64,000 nucleotides of DNA from NCBI RefSeq assembly GCF_024502345.1, contig NZ_JALDNN010000001.1; one strand, written 5' to 3'. The notes under the pieces were generated by a model. The model saw nothing but the letters and a program-made list of their open reading frames with translations, did not search any database and was not told the origin of the DNA. The stretch is from Escherichia coli (GTDB taxonomy: Bacteria > Pseudomonadota > Gammaproteobacteria > Enterobacterales > Enterobacteriaceae). Shown here piece after piece: positions 1-49,628 of the stretch. Each line of letters begins with the position of its first letter. Position 1 is the stretch's first letter. The translations under genes were made by a program, and so were the position numbers.

Positions 1-74
1 ATCTTTCCCCGGTGACAAAGTGCTAATTGGTCTGTAATGTTCAATGTGTGGCAGGCAAGCCGCCGGTGACTTAG

Positions 75-1270
<1,196 letters not shown>

Positions 1271-1439
1271 TTAATATAAAGACACAAGCAGAGACATTTT
1301 TGGCACGATATAAAAACGCTAAGTTAAAAAATCACTATGACGTGTTGGGTATCAAATGTTCACTGGCATAAACCTCTGTTTCTGATGTAAAACAGATTTT
1401 CTGAGGAGGCGTAAAACCTCCTCGTACTGCGAAATTGAT

Positions 1440-1940
1440 TTAGTGATAGCGATCGATCACGCCAACCAGATAGTGGTCGGTTTGCTGCATGTTGATGCCC
1501 GCTTTTTTAGCGCTGCGGACTTCATCCAGAATGATTTGCAACAGCGTCCCGTCCACGATTTCCTCTTTTCTGTATCGCTTCAGGAAGTTAATCGCTGACT
1601 TATCGTTTGCTGCCTGGGCGTCTTCCGTCAAAGAGGTCAGCGCATTAATGCGCTTCTGGTAATCGCTTACCGTCTGCTCAAACAGATCTTCCAGCGTGGA
1701 AAATTCACCGCACCGGGCGTGTTGCTCCTGTAACACCGGCGTGGCGCCGCTCTGTTTGATGTATTCGTACATGCGCATCATTTGCGTCACCGTATTTTGC
1801 GCCTGATGACGCAAAAATAGTGCGGTGCCATTAAGGCTATTCTCGCTGCACCTCTGGCTGAGCTGAAGATACAAATTTGAGGTATAAAACTCCTGATTCA
1901 TTTGCGCATTCAGTTTTTGAACTATTCCGCTAGCGATCAT
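1440..1940 (-). CDS. ferritin-like protein (bacterial non-heme ferritin family, FtnB-like), 166 aa
   Basis: 166-aa ORF with ferritin-like sequence pattern (N-terminal NQEFYTSNLYLQ, C-terminal LLQIILDEVRSAKKAG); isolated between the IS5-like element and IS26. Confidence 0.7.
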   Translation of the reverse strand: MIASGIVQKLNAQMNQEFYTSNLYLQLSQRCSENSLNGTALFLRHQAQNTVTQMMRMYEYIKQSGATPVLQEQHARCGEFSTLEDLFEQTVSDYQKRINALTSLTEDAQAANDKSAINFLKRYRKEEIVDGTLLQIILDEVRSAKKAGINMQQTDHYLVGVIDRYH

Positions 1941-2358
1941 AGGACTTCCTTATTTCTTGTCATCTCAGAAAACGGTCACTCTTCGAAAAAATAACCAGAA
2001 TAAAAGCGATTCTTTCGCTTTTTTTATTGCGCCTGGTTACGCAGTCATATTCATTTTAAGTCGGGATGCTCCTTATTTAAATATCCAACCCTACTATCGC
2101 ATTTCTATCTGGCATTATTCTGTGATGGTGTTTCGATATTCACACTCCCTGTGCCAATCCTTTCTTATCGACAGTAGGAAACTTCCTCCGGCTATTCTGC
2201 TGAACACGATTAGGGGCACTGTTGCAAAGTTAGCGATGAGGCAGCGTTTTGTCTTATTCAAAGGCCTTACATTTCAAAAACTCTGCTTACCAGGCGCATT
2301 TCGGGTGATGCTGCCAACTTACTGATTTAGTGTATGATGGTGTTTTTGAGGTGCTCCA

Positions 2359-2634
2359 GTGGCTTCTGTTTCTATCAGCTGTCCCTCCTGTTCAGCTACT
2401 GACGGGGTGGTGCGTAACGGCAAAAGCACCGCCGGACATCAGCGCTATCTCTGCTCTCACTGCCGTAAAACATGGCAACTGCAGTTCACTTACACCGCTT
2501 CTCAACCCGGTACGCACCAGAAAATCATTGATATGGCCATGAATGGCGTTGGATGCCGGGCAACCGCCCGCATTATGGGCGTTGGCCTCAACACGATTTT
2601 CCGCCATTTAAAAAACTCAGGCCGCAGTCGGTAA
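2359..2634 (+). CDS. insA: IS1 InsA (91 aa)
   Basis: Protein [43 protein letters not shown] matches IS1 InsA with its zinc-finger-like Cys pattern. Confidence 0.95.
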
Positions 2635-3056
2635 CCTCGCGCATACAGCCGGGCAGTGACGTCATCGTCTGCGCGGAAATGGACGAACAGTGGGGATACG
2701 TCGGGGCTAAATCGCGCCAGCGCTGGCTGTTTTACGCGTATGACAGGCTCCGGAAGACGGTTGTTGCGCACGTATTCGGTGAACGCACTATGGCGACGCT
2801 GGGGCGTCTTATGAGCCTGCTGTCACCCTTTGACGTGGTGATATGGATGACGGATGGCTGGCCGCTGTATGAATCCCGCCTGAAGGGAAAGCTGCACGTA
2901 ATCAGCAAGCGATATACGCAGCGAATTGAGCGGCATAACCTGAATCTGAGGCAGCACCTGGCACGGCTGGGACGGAAGTCGCTGTCGTTCTCAAAATCGG
3001 TGGAGCTGCATGACAAAGTCATCGGGCATTATCTGAACATAAAACACTATCAATAA
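2553..3056 (+). CDS. insB: IS1 InsB reading frame (InsAB' transposase produced by -1 frameshift)
   Basis: ORF overlapping the insA 3' end in the -1 frame; slippery motif AAAAAAC at 2610-2616; protein matches IS1 InsB. Confidence 0.93.
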
Positions 3057-3066
3057 GTTGGAGTCA

Positions 3067-3765
3067 TTACCGCATTTCGCCCAGGGGATCACCATAATAA
3101 AATGCTGAGGCCTGGCCTTTGCGTAGTGCACACATCACCTCAATACCTTTGATGGTAGCGTAAGCCGTCTTCATGGATTTAAATCCCAGCGTGGCGCCGA
3201 TTATCCGTTTCAGTTTGCCATAATCGCATTCAATCACGTTGTTCCGGTACTTAATCTGTCGGTGTTCAACGTCAGACGGGCACCGGCCTTCGCGTTTGAG
3301 CAGAGCAAGCGCGCGACCATAGGCGGGCGCTTTATCCGTGTTGATGAATCGCGGGATCTGCCACTTCTTCACGTTGTTGAGGATTTTACCCAGAAACCGG
3401 TATGCAGCTTTGCTGTTACGACGGGAGGAGAGATAAAAATCGACAGTGCGGCCCCGGCTGTCGACGGCCCGGTACAGATACGCCCAGCGGCCATTGACCT
3501 TCACGTAGGTTTCATCCATGTGCCACGGGCAAAGATCGGAAGGGTTACGCCAGTACCAGCGCAGCCGTTTTTCCATTTCAGGCGCATAACGCTGAACCCA
3601 GCGGTAAATCGTGGAGTGATCGACATTCACTCCGCGTTCAGCCAGCATCTCCTGCAGCTCACGGTAACTGATGCCGTATTTGCAGTACCAGCGTACGGCC
3701 CACAGAATGATGTCACGCTGAAAATGCCGGCCTTTGAATGGGTTCATGTGCAGCTCCATCAGCAA
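3067..3765 (-). pseudogene. tnpA: IS26 transposase (Tnp26) disrupted by IS1
   Basis: Protein MNPFKGRHFQRDIILWAVRWYCKYGISYRELQ matches IS26 Tnp; likely start codon at 3745-3747. The frame runs into the IS1 end and stops at 3067-3069; the native C-terminal codons (LVSRVFEM) lie on the other side of IS1 at about 2267-2302. Confidence 0.88.
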
Positions 3766-4895: not shown

Positions 4896-4915
4896 AGCCG
4901 GTTATTCCTGATTAT

Positions 4916-4947
4916 AGGCTCCGTTTGGGAAACGGAAAATATTGTAC
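4916..4947. repeat. outer 32 nt of a Tn3-family 38-bp terminal inverted repeat (copy a), split by an IS110-family insertion
   Basis: AGGCTCCGTTTGGGAAACGGAAAATATTGTAC resembles the intact IR at 15751-15788 (GGGGTCCGCTTGGAAAACGGAAATTATCCCAC read from outside); the remaining GTTAAG follows the IS at 6311-6316. Confidence 0.6.
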
Positions 4948-6310
4948 TATAAGGGCTTCCCCGGCATGTCAACGCCGGTTTTATAGTTTCTGTCTGCTCG
5001 TCAGTAAAATAAAGGGGAGAGACTGCGGTACTATAAACGGCCATGATAAATCGTTATCGATTCGGGCCCTGATGAAAGACGCGCGTGAGGTTCTTGTTCG
5101 TTAAGCGGATACGTATATCCTGTACAATAGCCAGATAGGCCTCACGGGGTCTAACCCTTTTTCATCAACGAGTTGCAGGTCAGATGGTTATACTGCTTTG
5201 TGCTTTAGCTGGCTGAGTACAGCCTGAAATCATCACCGTAATGCAACGATGCCCAGCACAGCCTCGCGTTTTTGGCGGCGATGGCTACAACAGCCCGCCA
5301 GTACCCCCTGCGCTCAACCAACTTACAAACCCAACGGCTGAATGAGTCAGTCCTTTTCTCTGCACCAATCAAAACCGAACGGGCCCCCTGAACCAGAAGC
5401 GTTCGCAGATATGAATCGCCCGCTTTCGTTATTCTGCCAAGCTTTGATTTTCCGCCACTGCTGTACTGTGATGGTGTAAGTCCCAGCCAGGCTGCCAGTT
5501 GGCGTCCATTCTTAAAATCATGGGCATTACCGATACTGGCGACCAGCGCACAGGCCGTTGTGGGACCAATCCCTTTCAGTTCCATCAGTCGTTGGCTGCG
5601 GTGATCCGTTTTTGCCATGCGGGACAGGATCCGGTCATATTCAGCGATGTTATCTTCAATGCGATTAATGTGTTCCAGCAGATCATCAACGCATTGCTGA
5701 ACCTGAAGCGGCAAAGAATTCTTCTGTTCAGAAACGATGTGGCGCAGGGCATCTGTACTTTGTGGAGCGATGACGCCGAATTCAGATATCAAACCTCTTA
5801 ATCGGTTATATGTTGCTGTTTTCTCTTCGATAAAACCTTGTCTGGTACGGTGTAGACATTGCATCGCCTGCTGGCTCTCATCCTTCACTGGCACGAACCG
5901 CATATGCGGGCGACGGACAGCCTCACAAATAGCCTGGGCATCAGCTGCATCATTTTTTCCTGATTTACCGGCCATGCGATATGGCGATACGAACTTTGCA
6001 GCCATCAAACGGGGCTCATGGCCATACTGCCGAAACACTCTTGCCCAGTAATGGGCGCCTGAGCACGCCTCCATCCCGATAACACAGGGAGGCAGGCTTG
6101 CAATTAACTCAGGAAGTGCAGCACGCGATACTTTAGGTTTAACCAGAACAGTTTTTCCATTTTGATCAACGCAGTGAACAGCGAACACATTTTTAGCAAG
6201 ATCGATACCGACAGTAGTGATAGTCATAACGAATCCCTCCAGGGCTATGTTTACCCCATGATTGCACAAGAGCTAATCAGGCACATATCCAGGGGAAGTC
6301 CCTTCCATTC
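4948..6310 (-). mobile_element. IS110-family insertion sequence, copy A (IS1111 / IS4321-IS5075-like), 1363 bp
   Basis: Bounded by TATAAGGGCTTCCCC (4948-) and GGGGAAGTCCCTTCCATTC (-6310); contains one IS110-family transposase gene; inserted inside a Tn3-family IR with no target duplication. Confidence 0.85.
5205..6227 (-). CDS. IS110-family transposase (340 aa from MTITTVGIDLAKN)
   Basis: N-terminal VGIDLAKN motif typical of IS110-family transposases; the ORF track begins 14 codons upstream, but copy B starts at the MTITTVGID methionine (6225-6227 here). Confidence 0.88.
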   Translation of the reverse strand: MTITTVGIDLAKNVFAVHCVDQNGKTVLVKPKVSRAALPELIASLPPCVIGMEACSGAHYWARVFRQYGHEPRLMAAKFVSPYRMAGKSGKNDAADAQAICEAVRRPHMRFVPVKDESQQAMQCLHRTRQGFIEEKTATYNRLRGLISEFGVIAPQSTDALRHIVSEQKNSLPLQVQQCVDDLLEHINRIEDNIAEYDRILSRMAKTDHRSQRLMELKGIGPTTACALVASIGNAHDFKNGRQLAAWLGLTPSQYSSGGKSKLGRITKAGDSYLRTLLVQGARSVLIGAEKRTDSFSRWVCKLVERRGYWRAVVAIAAKNARLCWASLHYGDDFRLYSAS

Positions 6311-6350
6311 GTTAAGATCAAATTTTAACCTGTAATACACTGATAAATTA

Positions 6351-6382
6351 GGGGCCCGCTTGGAAAACGGAAAATATCCTAC
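6351..6382. repeat. outer 32 nt of a Tn3-family 38-bp terminal inverted repeat (copy b), split by the second IS110-family insertion
   Basis: GGGGCCCGCTTGGAAAACGGAAAATATCCTAC, then the IS, then GTTAAG at 7746-7751 running directly into the tnpA remnant; together these reconstruct a 38-bp IR closely matching 15751-15788. Confidence 0.75.
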
Positions 6383-7745
6383 TATAAGGGCTTCCCCGAA
6401 CAGTCAACGCCGGTTTTTAATTTCTGTCTGTTCATCAATGAAAGGCAAGGGATAAGACTGCGCTACTATAAACGGTCATGCTGAATCGCTAGTGATTCGG
6501 ACCCTGATGAAAGACGCTCGTGAGATCCTCCTTCGTTAATCGGATAGTGATATCCAGTAGGATATGCAGATACTTCTCACGGGGGTCTAACCCTTTACCA
6601 TCAACAATTTACAGTTCAGTTACTACTCAGTTAAATTTTTCATGTTGTTGAATACAGTCTGAAGTCATCGCCGTAATGTAATGATGCCCAGCACAACCTC
6701 GCATTCTTGGCGGCGATTGCAACGACAGCACGCCAGTATCCCCGCCTACCAATCAACGAGCAGACCCAACGGCTAAACGGGTCCGTTCTATTCTCTGCCC
6801 CTACCATTACAGAACGGGCTCCCTGGACCAGTAGGGTTCGCAGATAGGCATCACCCGCTTTTGTTATCCTGCCAAGCTTTGATTTTCCGCCACTACTGTA
6901 TTGTGATGGCGTTAGCCCCAACCAGGCTGCCAGTTGGCGCCCGTTCTTAAAATCATGGGCATTGCCAATACTGGCGACCAGCGCACTCGCTGTGGTGGGC
7001 CCAACACCTTTCAGTTCCATTAACTGCTGGCTGCGATGATCTGTTTTGGCCACACGAGATAATACCCTGTCATATTCGGCGATTTTCTCTTCAATATTAG
7101 TGACATGTGTCAATAGATCATCAATGCACAGCCTAACCTGTACTGGCAGAGTTTCCTTCTGGTCAGAAACAACATGACGCAGAGCATCAGTGCTTTGTGG
7201 GGCAATAACCCCGAATTCAGATATCAGGCCCCGAAGACGGTTATACGTTGCTGTTCTTTCCTGGATAAATCCCTGTCTTGTCCGATGTAAGCATTGCATT
7301 GCCTGCTGGCTTTCGTCTTTGACTGGTACAAAGCGCATATGCGGCCGCTGCACTGCCTCACAAATAGCTATTGCATCAGCTGCATCATTTTTCCCGGTCT
7401 TACCCGCCATGCGATAGGGTGAGACAAATTTCGGAGCCATCAACCGGACATCATGGCCATACTGCCTGAATAATCTTGCCCAATAGTGGGCACCCGAGCA
7501 GGCTTCCATTCCAATGACACAGGGAGGTAAACCTGCGATGAGTTCAGAAAGTGCTGCACGCGACACCTTGGGTTTAACCAGAACAGCTTTACCATTTTGG
7601 TCAATGCAGTGAACAGCAAACACATTTTTAGCAAGATCGATACCGACAGTGGTGATGGTCATAACGAATCCCTCTGGGTCAATGTTTATCCTATGATTGC
7701 ACGAAAGTTAATCAGGCGCATATCTAGGGGAAGTCCCTTCCATTC
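6383..7745 (-). mobile_element. IS110-family insertion sequence, copy B, 1363 bp
   Basis: Same termini and same length as copy A; the transposase is about 88 percent identical to copy A by eye; inserted at the equivalent position of a second IR copy in the same orientation. Confidence 0.85.
6640..7662 (-). CDS. IS110-family transposase (340 aa)
   Basis: Intact ORF, a paralogue of the copy A transposase. Confidence 0.9.
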   Translation of the reverse strand: MTITTVGIDLAKNVFAVHCIDQNGKAVLVKPKVSRAALSELIAGLPPCVIGMEACSGAHYWARLFRQYGHDVRLMAPKFVSPYRMAGKTGKNDAADAIAICEAVQRPHMRFVPVKDESQQAMQCLHRTRQGFIQERTATYNRLRGLISEFGVIAPQSTDALRHVVSDQKETLPVQVRLCIDDLLTHVTNIEEKIAEYDRVLSRVAKTDHRSQQLMELKGVGPTTASALVASIGNAHDFKNGRQLAAWLGLTPSQYSSGGKSKLGRITKAGDAYLRTLLVQGARSVMVGAENRTDPFSRWVCSLIGRRGYWRAVVAIAAKNARLCWASLHYGDDFRLYSTT

Positions 7746-7746
7746 G

Positions 7747-8088
7747 TTAAGCCTGTTTTTTATACAGACTGCTATCTACTGAGCGTAACGAACGGTATTT
7801 TCCCTGTCCCAGCTTGAGGTTTGTTCGCCAGACGTAATCTCCACTCAAGTTGATGTGTTCCCATCCCAGCGGGGACAGATGAGAAATCAGCTGTTCATTT
7901 AGTGGGATCCCTTTTCGCTTCAGAGAATCTATGGCTCTTTCTATATATACCGTATTCCACAGTGAGATCGCCGCAGTCAGCAATGTCAGCCCGCTGGCCC
8001 GGTAGCTCTGGTTTTCCAGTCCCCGGTCTCTGATTTCCCCCAGCCGGTGCATAAAGACTGCTCGCGCTATAACAGCGCCCCCCCCCAC
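7747..8088 (-). pseudogene. tnpA: Tn3-family transposase TnpA, C-terminal remnant (about 110 codons)
   Basis: [53 protein letters not shown]...LYKKQA parallels the C-terminus of the intact TnpA at 12771-15755; ends next to the split IR; similarity is lost upstream at a poly-C tract near 8078-8086. Confidence 0.8.
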
Positions 8089-19507: not shown

Positions 19508-20565
19508 GGCTTTGTTGAATAAATCAGATTTCGGGTAAGTCTCCCCCGTAGCGGGTTGTGTTTTCAGGCAATACGCACGCTTTCAGGCATACCTGCTTTC
19601 GTCATTTTGTTCAGCGCTCGTACCAGGGCCATAGCCTCTGCAACCTGACCATCGTAGTCACGCAGTGTCAGTGAACCCCCGAACAGCTGTTTTACCCGGT
19701 ACATCGCCGTTTCCGCTATCGAGCGACGGTTGTAATCTGTTGTCCATTTCCACCGCGCATTACTCCCGGTCATTCGCTGATTAGCCACTGCACGGTTACG
19801 GTCTGCATATTCACCGGGCCAGTAACCCGCACCTTTTCGGGGAGGGATAAGCGCGCTGATTTTCTTACGCCGCAGTTCATCGTGACATAGCCGGGTATCG
19901 TAAGCGCCATCGGCGGCGGCTGACCTGATTTTCCGGTGGGTTTGCCGGATTAACCCGGGGAAGGCCTCTGAGTCCGTAACGTTGTTCAGCGACAGGTCAG
20001 CGCAGATGATTTCATGTGTTTTACTGTCAACGGCGAGATGCAGCTTACGCCAGATACGGCGGCGTTCCTGGCCATGCTTTTTGACTTTCCACTCGCCTTC
20101 ACCGAAGACCTTCAGCCCGGTGGAATCAATTACCAGGTGTGCGATTTCACCCCGGGTGGGCGTTTTGAAACTGACATTAACCGACTTTGCCCGCCTGCTG
20201 ACACAGCTGTAATCCGGGCAGCGTAGCGGAACGTTCATCAGAGAAAAAATGGAATCAATAAAGCCCTGCGCAGCGCGCAGGGTCAGCCTGAATACGCGTT
20301 TAATGACCAAGCACAGTCGTGATGGCAAGGTCAGAATAGCGCTGAGGTCTGCCTCGTGAAGAAGGTGTTGCTGACTCATACCAGGCCTGAATAGCTTCAT
20401 CATCCAGCCAGAAAGTTATGGAGCCACGGTTGATGAGGGCTTTATTGTAGGTGGGCCAGTTGGTGATTTTGAACTTTTGCTTTGCCACGGAACGGTCTGC
20501 GTTGTCGGGAAGATACGTGATCTGATCCTTCAACTCAGCAAAAGTTCGATTTATTCAACAAAGCC
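19508..20565 (-). mobile_element. IS903-like element, copy 1 (1058 bp), flanked by a 9-bp target duplication
   Basis: IRs GGCTTTGTTGAATAAATC at 19508- and inverted ending 20565; direct repeats CCTCGTTTC at 19499-19507 and 20566-20574. Confidence 0.93.
19564..20533 (-). pseudogene. IS903 transposase, frameshifted
   Basis: Split into two ORFs (20300-20533 and 19564-20403); relative to copy 2 there is a 1-nt insertion near 20309-20310 (accaagcac versus accagcac). Confidence 0.9.
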
Positions 20566-20598
20566 CCTCGTTTCCTCTCTTCATGACACCCTGACTCA

Positions 20599-23177: not shown

Positions 23178-25361
23178 CTAAGCGCGTTTGATTTCAACCA
23201 GGTTGGTATGTTGCGGGTTCCCTTTCGCCAGCGGCGACGGCAGGTGGCTGGTCAATGTGTTAATACATCCACCCACGTCCACACCGTTGCTGTCCAGTCG
23301 GGTCCACGCGCCTTGCGGCATTGCCACCACGCCCGGCAGGATGCGCTGTGTCACCTTGCAGGGGATCTCCACCACACCGCGATCGTTGAATACATGGACC
23401 ATATCGCCTGATTTCAACTGACGCACGCTGGCGTCTATCGGGTTGATCCAGACTTCATCCGGTACCGCTTCATGCAGCATCAGCACACTGGCATATGTTG
23501 AGTGCGTGTGACCTTTGGTGTGAAAACCGCTCATCTGTAGCGGATACTTTGCTGTCAGACTCTTGTTCAGATGGGACTCTGTCACTATACAAAATTCAGG
23601 AACAGCCGGAATGCGATCTCCTTCCGGTAGTGTCCAGGCTTTAGCCAGTTCCGCCAGAGTGTGCGAGTAAATCTCAATCTTCCCGGAAGGTGTCGTCAGT
23701 GGACTGGCAACCGGATCATGGCGGAAATCAGCAAGGATAATACTGTCCTCATCACGAGTACCTTGCTGATCGATAACCCCCATATTCATTGCAACTTCCC
23801 ATTCAGGCAGATATGATCGCTTCTCTTTAACTTGTCCGTAATGCTTCGCCATCCACTCTGCCTGAGTACGCCCCTCAGTAAAACGCTCTCTTACCCCAAG
23901 ATGCCCCGCAATATCTGCACAGATATCATAGGTACTGCGTACTTCCCACATCGGTGTGATCGTTTTTTGCATTGCAATCATGTAATGGTGAGAACCGGCT
24001 GCATAGGAACTGTCCACCAGATCCTCGGCTTCTAAGTAGCTAGTTTCTGGAAGAAGGATATCGGCAAAGCGGGCACTGGCAGTCATATGATTATCAATAA
24101 CCACGATAGTTTCGCACAGGCTGTCATCTTCAAGTATTTTGCGTGTACGATTGATATTTCCATGTTGATTCAGAAGTGCATTCCCGGCCTGGTTGAAGAA
24201 CAGTTTAATACCGGTTTTCAGTTTATCCGCGCCTTTAACCCCCATAGTGGTGGCTGTCATTTTTTCCGGACTTTGAATCGCATCTGTCCACAGATAGCAG
24301 GGGATTGACACCTTAACGGGATTTTCACCAATCGGCAGAGCAGGAACACCATAAGGTGTTCCGTATGTCCAGTTCCCATTGTTGGTTCCTGGCAATCCAA
24401 AATGACCCGTCAGGGCAGGAAGTATCTGAACCGCTCTGGAAGTCTGTTCACCATTTGCATGACGCTGTGGCCCCCATCCCTGGGCAATGAAACAGGCCCG
24501 AGCTTCGGCCATTTCACGTGCCAACTGGCGAATACGAATAGCCGGGATGCCACAGATATCTGCCGCCCATTCAGGTGTTTTTTCGACGCCGTCATCACCG
24601 TTACCCAGAACATAGTCTTTATAACTGGCATTTGGTTTCGCCGTTTCCGGAAGGGTGCTACGATCATAACCGACACAATAAGTATTGACTCGTTCTTCGT
24701 CGATCAGATTTTCTTTTATCAACGTGTGTGCAATAGCTGCTACCAGTGCAGCATCGGTTGTAGGGCGAATTGGTAACCATTCAGCATGTTCTGTAACAAC
24801 AGAGTCTGTATAGCGCGGATCGATGATAATCACCCGGGCGCCTGATATTTCCAGCGCACGGCGCAGTTCTTCAACTTGCCCACCACCGGACATCCGAGTC
24901 TCAGATAAATTCAGACCAAAAAAAACCACAAGATCAGAATGCGCAATCTGGCTAAAATGACTGGCAAACTGTACTCCTGTAGCACCATACGTGTAAGATG
25001 TGGCGGTAAAGTTTTGAGCGTTTGAGTAATTATTGTAATACTGCAGAAAACCGCCATTCAGGTTCAATAACCTTTTCCATGCGGGTGTTCCTTGGTTATG
25101 ATAATACGCGCCAGATTGATAATTAAAATAGATTGCTTCATTTCCATATTTTTCAGAAACGCGCTTTAATTCAGCGGCAATAAAGGCTGTGGCCTCATCC
25201 CATGAAATACGTTTAAATTTCCCTTCTCCGCGTTTACCAACACGTTTCATCGGATATTTAATCCGGTCAGGGCTGTAAACTCGCCAGCGGCTGGAACGAC
25301 CTCGCAGACAGGGACGGATTTGGTGTTCACCGAATACCGAATCATCCTTAGCATCTTCCGG
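23178..25361 (-). pseudogene. DmsA-like molybdopterin oxidoreductase catalytic subunit, 5'-truncated by IS903 copy 2
   Basis: Frame stays open to the IS903 boundary (PEDAKDDSVFGEHQIRPCLRGRSSRWRVYSPDRIKYPMKRVG) and matches DmsA from about residue 85; the Tat signal and N-terminal Cys-cluster region are missing. Confidence 0.88.
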
Positions 25362-26418
25362 GGCTTTGTTGAATAAATCGAACTTTTGCTGAGTTGAAGG
25401 ATCAGATCACGTATCTTCCCGACAACGCAGACCGTTCCGTGGCAAAGCAAAAGTTCAAAATCACCAACTGGCCCACCTACAATAAAGCCCTCATCAACCG
25501 TGGCTCCATAACTTTCTGGCTGGATGATGAAGCTATTCAGGCCTGGTATGAGTCAGCAACACCTTCTTCACGAGGCAGACCTCAGCGCTATTCTGACCTT
25601 GCCATCACGACTGTGCTGGTCATTAAACGCGTATTCAGGCTGACCCTGCGCGCTGCGCAGGGCTTTATTGATTCCATTTTTTCTCTGATGAACGTTCCGC
25701 TACGCTGCCCGGATTACAGCTGTGTCAGCAGGCGGGCAAAGTCGGTTAATGTCAGTTTCAAAACGCCCACCCGGGGTGAAATCGCACACCTGGTAATTGA
25801 TTCCACCGGGCTGAAGGTCTTCGGTGAAGGCGAGTGGAAAGTCAAAAAGCATGGCCAGGAACGCCGCCGTATCTGGCGTAAGCTGCATCTCGCCGTTGAC
25901 AGTAAAACACATGAAATCATCTGCGCTGACCTGTCGCTGAACAACGTTACGGACTCAGAGGCCTTCCCCGGGTTAATCCGGCAAACCCACCGGAAAATCA
26001 GGTCAGCCGCCGCCGATGGCGCTTACGATACCCGGCTATGTCACGATGAACTGCGGCGTAAGAAAATCAGCGCGCTTATCCCTCCCCGAAAAGGTGCGGG
26101 TTACTGGCCCGGTGAATATGCAGACCGTAACCGTGCAGTGGCTAATCAGCGAATGACCGGGAGTAATGCGCGGTGGAAATGGACAACAGATTACAACCGT
26201 CGCTCGATAGCGGAAACGGCGATGTACCGGGTAAAACAGCTGTTCGGGGGTTCACTGACACTGCGTGACTACGATGGTCAGGTTGCAGAGGCTATGGCCC
26301 TGGTACGAGCGCTGAACAAAATGACGAAAGCAGGTATGCCTGAAAGCGTGCGTATTGCCTGAAAACACAACCCGCTACGGGGGAGACTTACCCGAAATCT
26401 GATTTATTCAACAAAGCC
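25362..26418 (+). mobile_element. IS903-like element, copy 2 (1057 bp), without target duplication
   Basis: IRs GGCTTTGTTGAATAAATCG at 25362- and inverted ending 26418; flanks ATCTTCCGG and CCGGTTGAA are not a direct repeat. Confidence 0.93.
25394..26362 (+). CDS. IS903 transposase (intact; likely 307 aa from the GTG at 25439)
   Basis: Matches IS903/IS102-type transposase as recalled (KQKFKITNWPTYNKALINRGS...MPESVRIA); the ORF track extends it upstream to a TTG. Confidence 0.92.
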   Translation: MKDQITYLPDNADRSVAKQKFKITNWPTYNKALINRGSITFWLDDEAIQAWYESATPSSRGRPQRYSDLAITTVLVIKRVFRLTLRAAQGFIDSIFSLMNVPLRCPDYSCVSRRAKSVNVSFKTPTRGEIAHLVIDSTGLKVFGEGEWKVKKHGQERRRIWRKLHLAVDSKTHEIICADLSLNNVTDSEAFPGLIRQTHRKIRSAAADGAYDTRLCHDELRRKKISALIPPRKGAGYWPGEYADRNRAVANQRMTGSNARWKWTTDYNRRSIAETAMYRVKQLFGGSLTLRDYDGQVAEAMALVRALNKMTKAGMPESVRIA

Positions 26419-46524: not shown

Positions 46525-46956
46525 TTACGATTTCAACTGGTAATCAAGCGTAATTTCCGCTTTCAGTACCTGAGAAACCGGGCATCCTGCTTTTGCTTTC
46601 TGGATGATGCCGTCAAAGGTAGAGGCATCAATACCCGGCACCGCAACTTCACTCTTCAGTGCGATTTTCGTAATCGCAAAACCGGCATCCACTTTATCCA
46701 GCGACACATCGGCGGTGGTATCAATCGATGTTGGCGTAAATCCCGCTTCCCCCAGCATTAATGAAAGCGCCATTGAGAAACATGCGGCATGCGCTGCGCC
46801 AATCAGTTCTTCAGGGTTAGTTCCTTTTTCGCCTTCAAAACGCGTGTTAAATCCATACGGCTGTTGGTTCAGCACGCCACTCTCGGTGGATACTGTTCCC
46901 TTCCCGCGTTTGATATCGCCTTCCCAGTGTGCCTGACCTTTCTTATGGATTGTCAT
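46525..46956 (-). CDS. osmC: osmotically inducible peroxiredoxin OsmC (143 aa)
   Basis: MTIHKKGQAHWEGDIKRGKGTVSTESGVLNQQPYGFNTRFEG matches OsmC as recalled. Confidence 0.96.
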   Translation of the reverse strand: MTIHKKGQAHWEGDIKRGKGTVSTESGVLNQQPYGFNTRFEGEKGTNPEELIGAAHAACFSMALSLMLGEAGFTPTSIDTTADVSLDKVDAGFAITKIALKSEVAVPGIDASTFDGIIQKAKAGCPVSQVLKAEITLDYQLKS

Positions 46957-47067
46957 TGTTGCTCTCCTGTGGGCTTAAAAAGGAAATTATAGACTACGTG
47001 AGAAACAGCACGAGGATAAGCAGGATATTCCGAATAAAAATCCGGCAGAAATATTACTTCTGTACTT

Positions 47068-47103
47068 AAATTAAATTCCCACAATAAATTAAATTCCCAC
47101 AAT
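47068..47103. repeat. perfect 18-bp tandem direct repeat (2 units) in the osmC-bdm intergenic region
   Basis: AAATTAAATTCCCACAAT at 47068-47085 and again at 47086-47103. Confidence 0.9.
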
Positions 47104-47319
47104 AGATTACCGGGAATATATAACCCAAAAGATATTGTATCAATATTAATCGGATCATACCAATCACAATCCCTATGAATATCATGGAGTTAAAATATAA
47201 AAATCATCAACCAGGACTAATCTTAACAACGAAGCGGCAAATATTTGCCATGCTGAATGTGCTTTATAAATCTGCGATCCGTAGCAGACACCATAAATAC
47301 ACAGACACGGAGAATCACT

Positions 47320-47535
47320 ATGTTTACTTATTATCAGGCAGAAAATTCAACAGCAGAACCCGCTCTGGTTAATGCCATTGAGCAAGGCCTTCGGGCACAG
47401 CACGGTGTTGTCACTGAAGATGACATTCTCATGGAGCTGACCAAATGGGTGGAAGCTTCTGATAACGACATCCTCAGTGATATCTACCAGCAAACGATCA
47501 ATTATGTGGTCAGTGGCCAGCACCCTACGCTTTAA
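47320..47535 (+). CDS. bdm: biofilm-dependent modulation protein Bdm (71 aa)
   Basis: MFTYYQAENSTAEPALVNAIEQGLRAQHGVVTEDDILMELTKW; start at ATG 47320 within the longer ORF-track frame. Confidence 0.9.
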   Translation: MFTYYQAENSTAEPALVNAIEQGLRAQHGVVTEDDILMELTKWVEASDNDILSDIYQQTINYVVSGQHPTL

Positions 47536-47839: not shown

Positions 47840-47930
47840 ATCTGCTTTATACTTGGGGCCGACGCCCTGGCGGTAAAGCAAAGACGATAAAAGCCCCCCA
47901 GGGATGGATATTCAAAAAAGAGTGAGTGAC

Positions 47931-49628
47931 ATGGAACCAAAAACAAAAAAACAGCGTTCGCTTTATATCCCTTACGCTGGCCCTGTACTGCTGGAATTTC
48001 CGTTGTTGAATAAAGGCAGTGCCTTCAGCATGGAAGAACGCCGTAACTTCAACCTGCTGGGGTTACTGCCGGAAGTGGTCGAAACCATCGAAGAACAAGC
48101 GGAACGAGCATGGATCCAGTATCAGGGATTCAAAACCGAAATCGACAAACACATCTACCTGCGTAACATCCAGGACACTAACGAAACCCTCTTCTACCGT
48201 CTGGTAAACAATCATCTTGATGAGATGATGCCTGTTATTTATACCCCAACCGTCGGCGCAGCCTGTGAGCGTTTTTCTGAGATCTACCGCCGTTCACGCG
48301 GCGTGTTTATCTCTTACCAGAACCGGCACAATATGGACGATATTCTGCAAAACGTGCCGAACCATAATATTAAAGTGATTGTGGTGACTGACGGTGAACG
48401 TATTCTGGGGCTTGGTGACCAGGGCATCGGTGGGATGGGCATTCCAATCGGTAAACTGTCGCTCTATACCGCCTGTGGCGGCATCAGCCCGGCGTATACC
48501 CTTCCGGTGGTGCTGGATGTCGGGACCAACAACCAGCAGCTGCTTAACGATCCGCTGTATATGGGCTGGCGTAATCCACGTATCACTGACGATGAATACT
48601 ATGAATTCGTTGATGAATTTATCCAGGCTGTGAAACAACGCTGGCCGGACGTGCTGTTGCAGTTTGAAGACTTTGCTCAAAAAAATGCGATGCCGTTACT
48701 TAACCGCTATCGCAATGAAATTTGTTCTTTTAACGATGACATTCAGGGCACTGCGGCGGTAACAGTCGGCACACTGATCGCAGCCAGCCGCGCGGCAGGT
48801 GGTCAGTTAAGCGAGAAAAAAATCGTCTTCCTTGGCGCAGGTTCAGCGGGATGCGGCATTGCCGAAATGATCATCGCCCAGACCCAGCGCGAAGGATTAA
48901 GCGAGGAAGCAGCGCGGCAGAAAGTCTTTATGGTCGATCGCTTTGGCTTGCTGACTGACAAGATGCCGAACCTGCTGCCTTTCCAGACCAAACTGGTGCA
49001 GAAACGCGAAAACCTCAGTGACTGGGATACCGACAGCGATGTGCTGTCACTGCTGGATGTGGTGCGCAATGTAAAACCAGATATTCTGATTGGCGTCTCA
49101 GGACAGACCGGGCTGTTTACGGAAGAGATCATCCGTGAGATGCATAAACACTGTCCGCGTCCGATCGTGATGCCGCTGTCTAACCCGACGTCACGCGTGG
49201 AAGCCACACCGCAGGACATTATCGCCTGGACCGAAGGTAACGCGCTGGTCGCCACTGGCAGCCCGTTTAATCCAGTGGTATGGAAAGATAAAATCTACCC
49301 TATCGCCCAGTGTAACAACGCCTTTATTTTCCCTGGCATCGGGCTGGGTGTTATTGCTTCCGGCGCGTCACGTATCACCGATGAGATGCTGATGTCAGCA
49401 AGTGAAACGCTTGCTCAGTATTCGCCGCTGGTGCTGAACGGCGAAGGTCTGGTACTACCGGAACTGAAAGATATTCAGAAAGTCTCCCGCGCAATTGCGT
49501 TTGCGGTTGGCAAAATGGCGCAGCAGCAAGGCGTGGCGGTGAAAACGTCTGCTGAAGCTTTGCAACAAGCCATTGACGATAATTTCTGGCAAGCCGAATA
49601 CCGCGACTACCGCCGTACCTCCATCTAA
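47931..49628 (+). CDS. maeA: NAD-dependent malic enzyme (565 aa)
   Basis: [32 protein letters not shown] start; start at ATG 47931 rather than the ORF-track start 47904. Confidence 0.96.

Follow-up and report, generated by a model that had tools for sequence, protein, structure and literature searches.

The window, by which we mean the whole 64,000-nucleotide stretch of E. coli DNA analysed here, carries the divergently transcribed genes osmC and bdm, both intact and both reported to be Rcs- and osmotic-stress-regulated. Downstream of bdm lie sra and then maeA. The spacer between osmC and bdm is 363 bp long, and its GC minimum of 0.24 coincides with a short tandem repeat that is the subject of this analysis. 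The flanking ORFs agree with the placement of this repeat in the osmC-bdm divergent control region by the sequence-only reading, a first interpretation of the window made from its letters. The genome closest to the window was that of FDAARGOS_943 (99.5% over 22 kb; 98.7% for the runner-up). In this relative, an IS1A element is located between sra and maeA (locus-extract 2421-3118) and maeA itself (locus-extract 3252 onward) is annotated as frameshifted; the maeA ORF of the window (47904-49628) is intact.

Direct reading of the window revealed two perfect copies of the 18-bp unit AAATTAAATTCCCACAAT, arranged head-to-tail and free of mismatches, and Tandem Repeats Finder recovered the same structure at 47067-47109 with a period of 18, 2.4 copies and 96% matches. 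The perfect 18-bp duplication noticed in the sequence-only reading was thus confirmed by both approaches. Which of the two unit copies should be called the extra one is arbitrary. The fractional copy number reflects a partial third copy, AGATTA, which agrees with the unit start AAATTA at 5/6 positions. A search of the 64-kb window for the unit at up to 3 mismatches returned the two tandem copies only, while matches averaged 0.11 per dinucleotide-preserving shuffle and 0/100 shuffles held at least 2. The repeat had the top tandem-repeat score within the window, where only one other tandem repeat was detected (56940-56978, period 20, 1.9 copies, 89% matches).

Searches for a dispersed repeat family or a structured RNA at this position returned nothing. 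No further copy of the unit was present in the 64 kb at up to 3 mismatches that could point to a dispersed intergenic repeat family of the REP, BIME or ERIC kind, and no Rfam covariance model matched the osmC-bdm spacer at an E-value of up to 1. A target-site duplication or insertion sequence footprint was rejected, since no sequence separates the two copies. Nor do we regard the mechanically called 49-aa ORF that runs through the repeat on the minus strand (46953-47102) as a gene, since it extends across the promoter and start codon of osmC and is unsupported. The features of the spacer are collected in Table 1.

Table 1. Features of the osmC-bdm region in window coordinates, with two IS1 insertions found in the same spacer of other strains.
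Feature	Position	Strand	Basis or remark
osmC CDS, 143 aa, intact	46525..46956	-	ORF; annotation in near-identical RefSeq genomes
osmC transcription start	46984	-	K-12 start, 28 nt upstream of ATG, transferred to the window
osmC core promoter region	46986..47019	-	hexamers, fully conserved in Escherichia
osmC overlapping CTATAAT	46992-46986	-	
osmC -10, TAGTCT	46996-46991	-	
osmC -35, TTATCC	47019-47014	-	17-bp spacer to the -10
Palindromic RcsB-box-like site TCGGAATATCCTGC	47020..47033 (-36 to -49)	-	adjoins the -35 upstream; 6/8 match
Copy 1 of the 18-bp unit AAATTAAATTCCCACAAT	47068..47085	none	direct reading, Tandem Repeats Finder
Copy 2, same letters as copy 1	47086..47103	none	direct reading
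Partial third copy, AGATTA	47104..47109	none	5/6 against the unit start
Promoter-like TTGATA-17-TATATT, facing osmC	47115..47143	-	10/12; just bdm-side of the repeat
bdm-proximal RcsB-box-like site CAGGACTAATCTTA	47212..47225	+	7/8; conserved as far as Citrobacter
Predicted bdm promoter hexamers, TTGCCA (47245-47250) and TATAAA (47265-47270)	47245..47270	+	prediction
bdm CDS, 71 aa, intact	47320..47535	+	ORF; annotation in near-identical RefSeq genomes
IS1B in RM14721 (NZ_CP027105)	locus-extract 2088-2855		target duplication at ~window 47036-47044
IS1A in AB66 (NZ_OZ547461)	locus-extract ~2097-2864		orientation opposite to RM14721; target duplication GCGAAAATA at ~window 47045-47053

The sequence-only reading had left it undecided whether K-12 carries one copy of the unit or two, the second case making the repeat a conserved feature. 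In the alignment, K-12 lacked the second unit: MG1655, DH5α and C600 all possess a single copy in a 344-bp spacer, and a clean 18-bp gap is their sole large difference from the window. The duplication is therefore a strain-level variant and not a conserved feature. Other spacer haplotypes, represented by AR_452, O157 and FDAARGOS_1264, also carry one copy each. Relative to the one-copy length of ~344-345 bp, the spacer is longer by 1.7 helical turns.

We counted carriers with a 52-nt query spanning the two-copy junction, designed so that one-copy genomes lack any 28-mer seed for it. The junction was present in exactly 35 of the 5,426 complete E. coli genomes (0.65%), and every carrier had the K-12-type spacer haplotype. 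Longer two-copy queries of 133-134 nt, built on the AR_452 and O157 haplotypes, were non-discriminating, as one-copy genomes reach 100% coverage of them through two overlapping pieces. An equivalent 52-nt junction query for the TTTCC unit haplotype found no two-copy allele among complete genomes. A synthetic three-copy query matched two-copy spans only, giving no three-copy allele, and the junction was absent from JGI metagenome contigs even with A, C or T allowed at the variable position of the unit. In all 35 carriers the junction occurs at one place per genome, always on the chromosome.

These counts bear directly on two further explanations, namely that the second copy is an artefact of sequencing or assembly, or that it is a feature universal in E. 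coli. We assign practically no weight to either of them, nothing having been found in their favour. The exact junction is common to 35 independent complete assemblies and is consequently not an assembly artefact, and about 99% of E. coli, more than 5,300 genomes with MG1655 among them, carry one copy.

At least four spacer haplotypes are represented among the carriers: (a) the window, FDAARGOS_943/944 and TUM9757, which have a distinct left spacer segment; (b) a group of 17 genomes around strain 05-3629; (c) 11 genomes whose spacer differs from that of MG1655 only by the duplication, among them a tight set of isolates from cattle and humans; and (d) RM11911, RM13745, RM13752 and K99B. Their flanking 2-kb segments are mosaic and differ by up to 1.8%. 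RM11911, for example, is K-12-like on the osmC side and 05-3629-like on the bdm side, while TUM9757 has K-12-like flanks and yet carries the same rare left-spacer haplotype as the window, a pattern that would be best explained by recombination importing a short patch into TUM9757. Judging from these haplotypes, the duplication may have arisen independently between one and about four times.

Over 4.4 kb, the nearest neighbours of both tested carriers were without exception carriers themselves. Since neither had a one-copy twin over this distance, the two-copy allele is stably inherited in both of these clonal groups, and given this stability the locus is not a hypervariable repeat. The finding matters for the possibility that the unit is a contingency-type variable repeat, changing its copy number at high frequency so that the locus acts as a switch. 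A perfect head-to-tail repeat with copy-number polymorphism, scattered over at least four haplotypes with divergent flanks, is what such a switch might look like. It is nevertheless extremely unlikely to be one: only one or two copies, and never three, were seen in 5,426 genomes, both tested clonal groups were uniformly two-copy, and the TUM9757 pattern fits recombinational transfer better than recurrent mutation.

We then related the duplication to the control elements of the spacer. The osmC start of Kim et al. 2012 (PMC3415461, supplement file 2), reported with the upstream sequence TTCGGAATATCCTGCTTATCCTCGTGCTGTTTCTCACGTAGTCTATAATTT, served as the reference point on the osmC side. On the bdm side, the predicted start near 47277 places the duplication ~175-210 bp upstream. 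The ROSE supplement names neither osmC nor bdm. The osmC hexamers would be those reportedly assigned to osmCp1/osmCp2 by Gordia & Gutierrez 1996, and the palindrome upstream of the -35 is presumably the site at which RcsB and NhaR reportedly act (Sturny et al. 2003). An activator site for RcsB/NhaR overlapping osmCp1 was reportedly described by Davalos-Garcia in 2001 and Sturny in 2003, and the RcsB box of bdm is said to have been described by Francez-Charlot in 2005.

The repeat shares the divergent control region with these two activator sites but overlaps neither of them, nor any other mapped or predicted element: it begins ~35 bp past the RcsB/NhaR box of osmC, and its other end is 108 bp short of the bdm box. 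With the consensus TN(G/A)GAN4TC(T/C)NA (from PMC7913699), no RcsB-box match of at least 6/8 was found within 47068-47103, so that the unit itself is without a match to this consensus. A 7/8 RcsB-like match at 47150-47163 was rejected as a chance occurrence, lying as it does in the least conserved segment of the spacer. The idea, raised when the repeat was first noticed, that the duplication could change the copy number or spacing of a regulator site was not borne out for known sites: it lies outside both RcsB-like boxes, at positions -84 to -119 relative to the osmC start as mapped.

A different route to an effect would be for the duplication to create or move a promoter, or to sit in a transcribed leader, and we regard this as very unlikely. 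Only one promoter-like pair, TTCCCA-16-CACAAT, is peculiar to the two-copy allele; it faces bdm and is weak, its 8/12 matches being at background level. No new sigma-70 promoter (hexamers of at least 9/12 with 16-18 bp spacing) was found at the junction, and the scan of the region gave 2 promoter-like sites against a mean of 2.3 in shuffled sequence. The distal TTGATA-17-TATATT site offers a second route, as a transcript from it would begin just before the repeat. This site scores 10/12, lies ~130 bp upstream of the known osmC promoter and has hexamers that are conserved in part within Escherichia; the RNA-polymerase SELEX work of Shimada et al. 2014 independently picked it as a predicted promoter. 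Against its use, the transcription start dataset of Kim et al. 2012 for E. coli contains no start at 47115-47143 and only the proximal osmC start, though this dataset is also without any bdm start. The notion of a transcribed leader gains some support from Salmonella SL1344 (PMC7913699), where yddX, the bdm homologue, starts 30 bp from the osmC start beside the osmC promoter, so that the whole spacer is transcribed there as part of a leader of ~260 nt.

A conservation footprint over six one-copy Escherichia lineages showed two strongly conserved promoter-proximal blocks and a variable centre (0.64-0.76). Exactly on the 18-bp unit, conservation rises locally to 0.87-0.91, compared with 0.64-0.76 in the sequence flanking it, which hints that the unit could be a functional site. 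Candidate factors are suggested by the literature: H-NS and Lrp are reported regulators of osmC, H-NS repressing the osmC promoters by a mechanism described as unknown, and Shimada et al. 2014 attach an 'HNS' flag to the osmC-bdm spacer, at the level of the spacer. The high-affinity H-NS nucleation motif tCGATAAATT (Lang et al. 2007, PMC2094087) is matched at 8/10 positions at 47063-47072 and once more at the new junction (47081-47090). Both matches have a central T-A step and lie in an AT-rich tract of an H-NS-flagged spacer. Neither reproduces the motif perfectly, and the spacer holds many of comparable quality: 16-21 sites match the H-NS template at 7/10 or better, and several match the Lrp consensus at 11/15. 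The new junction also adds an 11/15 match to the Lrp consensus. Because motif matches are frequent in AT-rich DNA and the lineages compared are few, we treat the conservation and the motifs as hints and not as evidence.

Natural insertions provide a further view of the same tract. Many one-copy strains carry an IS1 within the osmC-bdm spacer, and we inspected one of each orientation, 777-bp insertions in RM14721 and AB66 (Table 1). With different 9-bp target duplications and opposite orientations, these two insertions are independent of each other. They lie 14-40 bp from the unit, the AB66 target duplication being 14 bp away, and both sit between the osmC RcsB/NhaR box and the unit, thereby parting the osmC promoter and its box from the unit and all of the spacer on its far side. 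The same IS1-containing match to the locus was found in at least nine further strains (T16R, YY76-1, L37, 19-5, DY612 and others), and place counts suggest a split spacer in about 25 genomes. That natural strains carry IS1 14-40 bp from the unit suggests that the central spacer tolerates disruption, and argues that the central tract is without strong constraint and a hotspot for structural change.

Together, these observations frame the question of whether the duplication is a regulatory variant, in which the unit would be a true binding or nucleation site for H-NS, Lrp or another factor and its doubling would change the silencing of osmC and bdm-sra or the coupling of their promoters in the carrier lineages. 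A modest effect of this kind is the main alternative to near-neutrality, though it is unlikely. The coincidence of the unit with the conservation peak in Escherichia would fit it, as would the H-NS-template and Lrp-consensus matches (8/10 and 11/15) gained at the junction, the H-NS flag of the spacer together with the reported regulation of osmC by H-NS and Lrp, and the presence of the allele in several clonal groups. However, AT-rich DNA commonly yields motif matches this good, the conservation peak comes from six lineages only, the allele reaches a frequency of just 0.65%, and many strains retain IS1 insertions that part the unit from the osmC promoter. Moreover, osmC and bdm go unmentioned in an Lrp ChIP-seq preprint. 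A stronger version, in which the unit would be a conserved operator or nucleation site whose duplication retunes H-NS/Lrp silencing of osmC and bdm-sra and was spread by recombination as advantageous, appears distinctly improbable.

The structure of the one-copy allele points to how the second copy may have arisen. In one-copy strains the unit is bracketed by an imperfect 7-bp direct repeat, TAAATTA and TAGATTA (6/7), whose members are exactly 18 bp apart; in the window, T47067 together with the unit start forms TAAATTA, and TAGATTA overlaps the partial third copy. This microhomology could let a nascent strand re-anneal one unit back, and replication slippage of this kind is the most likely source of the lineage-restricted 18-bp tandem duplication. 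The duplication adds a second copy of an AT-rich element, but neither an activator box nor a strong new promoter, and expression of osmC and bdm-sra most likely changes little or not at all. Any effect that does exist would most plausibly be exerted through nucleoid proteins such as H-NS coating the AT-rich tract, and not through RcsB/NhaR.

We infer both the slippage mechanism and near-neutrality from these patterns, and the duplication is probably a slippage-born, near-neutral length polymorphism in the least constrained centre of the spacer. Against near-neutrality stand the conservation peak on the unit, the additional H-NS-template match at the junction and the reported repression of the osmC promoters by H-NS. 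Several clonal groups, a set of cattle and human isolates included, are moreover fixed for the allele, which would be compatible with selection. Like slipped-strand minisatellite or VNTR indels, the repeat is head-to-tail, has microhomology at the edges of the ancestral unit and varies in copy number between strains. Unlike slipped-strand VNTRs, it exists in two states only (1 or 2 copies) and is stable in the clonal groups tested. To our knowledge, the osmC-bdm repeat is not one of the E. coli MLVA loci. A search of the searchable literature for the repeat sequence found no description, and the duplication, previously undescribed there, is on this reading an ordinary slippage polymorphism.

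The duplication is an allele found rarely in nature, in a stress-promoter region that is itself well studied, and is at most a useful lineage marker. It also supplies a ready natural variant for probing the role of the central AT-rich tract in H-NS/Lrp control of the osmC-bdm spacer. If the unit were truly a binding site, strains with two copies and strains disrupted by IS1 would together provide an allelic series from nature for this question.

AT-rich upstream regulatory DNA elsewhere is also subject to structural change; insertion of IS1 or IS5 upstream activates the H-NS-silenced bgl operon. The osmC-bdm spacer resembles this case in that it has taken two independent IS1 insertions in other strains. 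The duplication itself differs from the bgl insertions in consisting of 18 bp of duplicated local sequence with no mobile element, and activation is not evident.

Mobile elements and larger repeats are present elsewhere in the window. One IS1 copy, 99% identical to the IS1B of RM14721, lies at 2304-3071 on the minus strand. Two inverted copies of a 1,060-bp element (19508-20567 and 25360-26418), which are 99.9% identical to each other and code for a transposase of the IS5 family (NCBIfam NF033579, E 1.9e-86), flank ~4.8 kb in a composite-transposon-like arrangement. Finally, adjacent direct copies of ~1.4 kb each at 4911-6316 and 6347-7751 are 80% identical and probably represent tandem paralogous genes.
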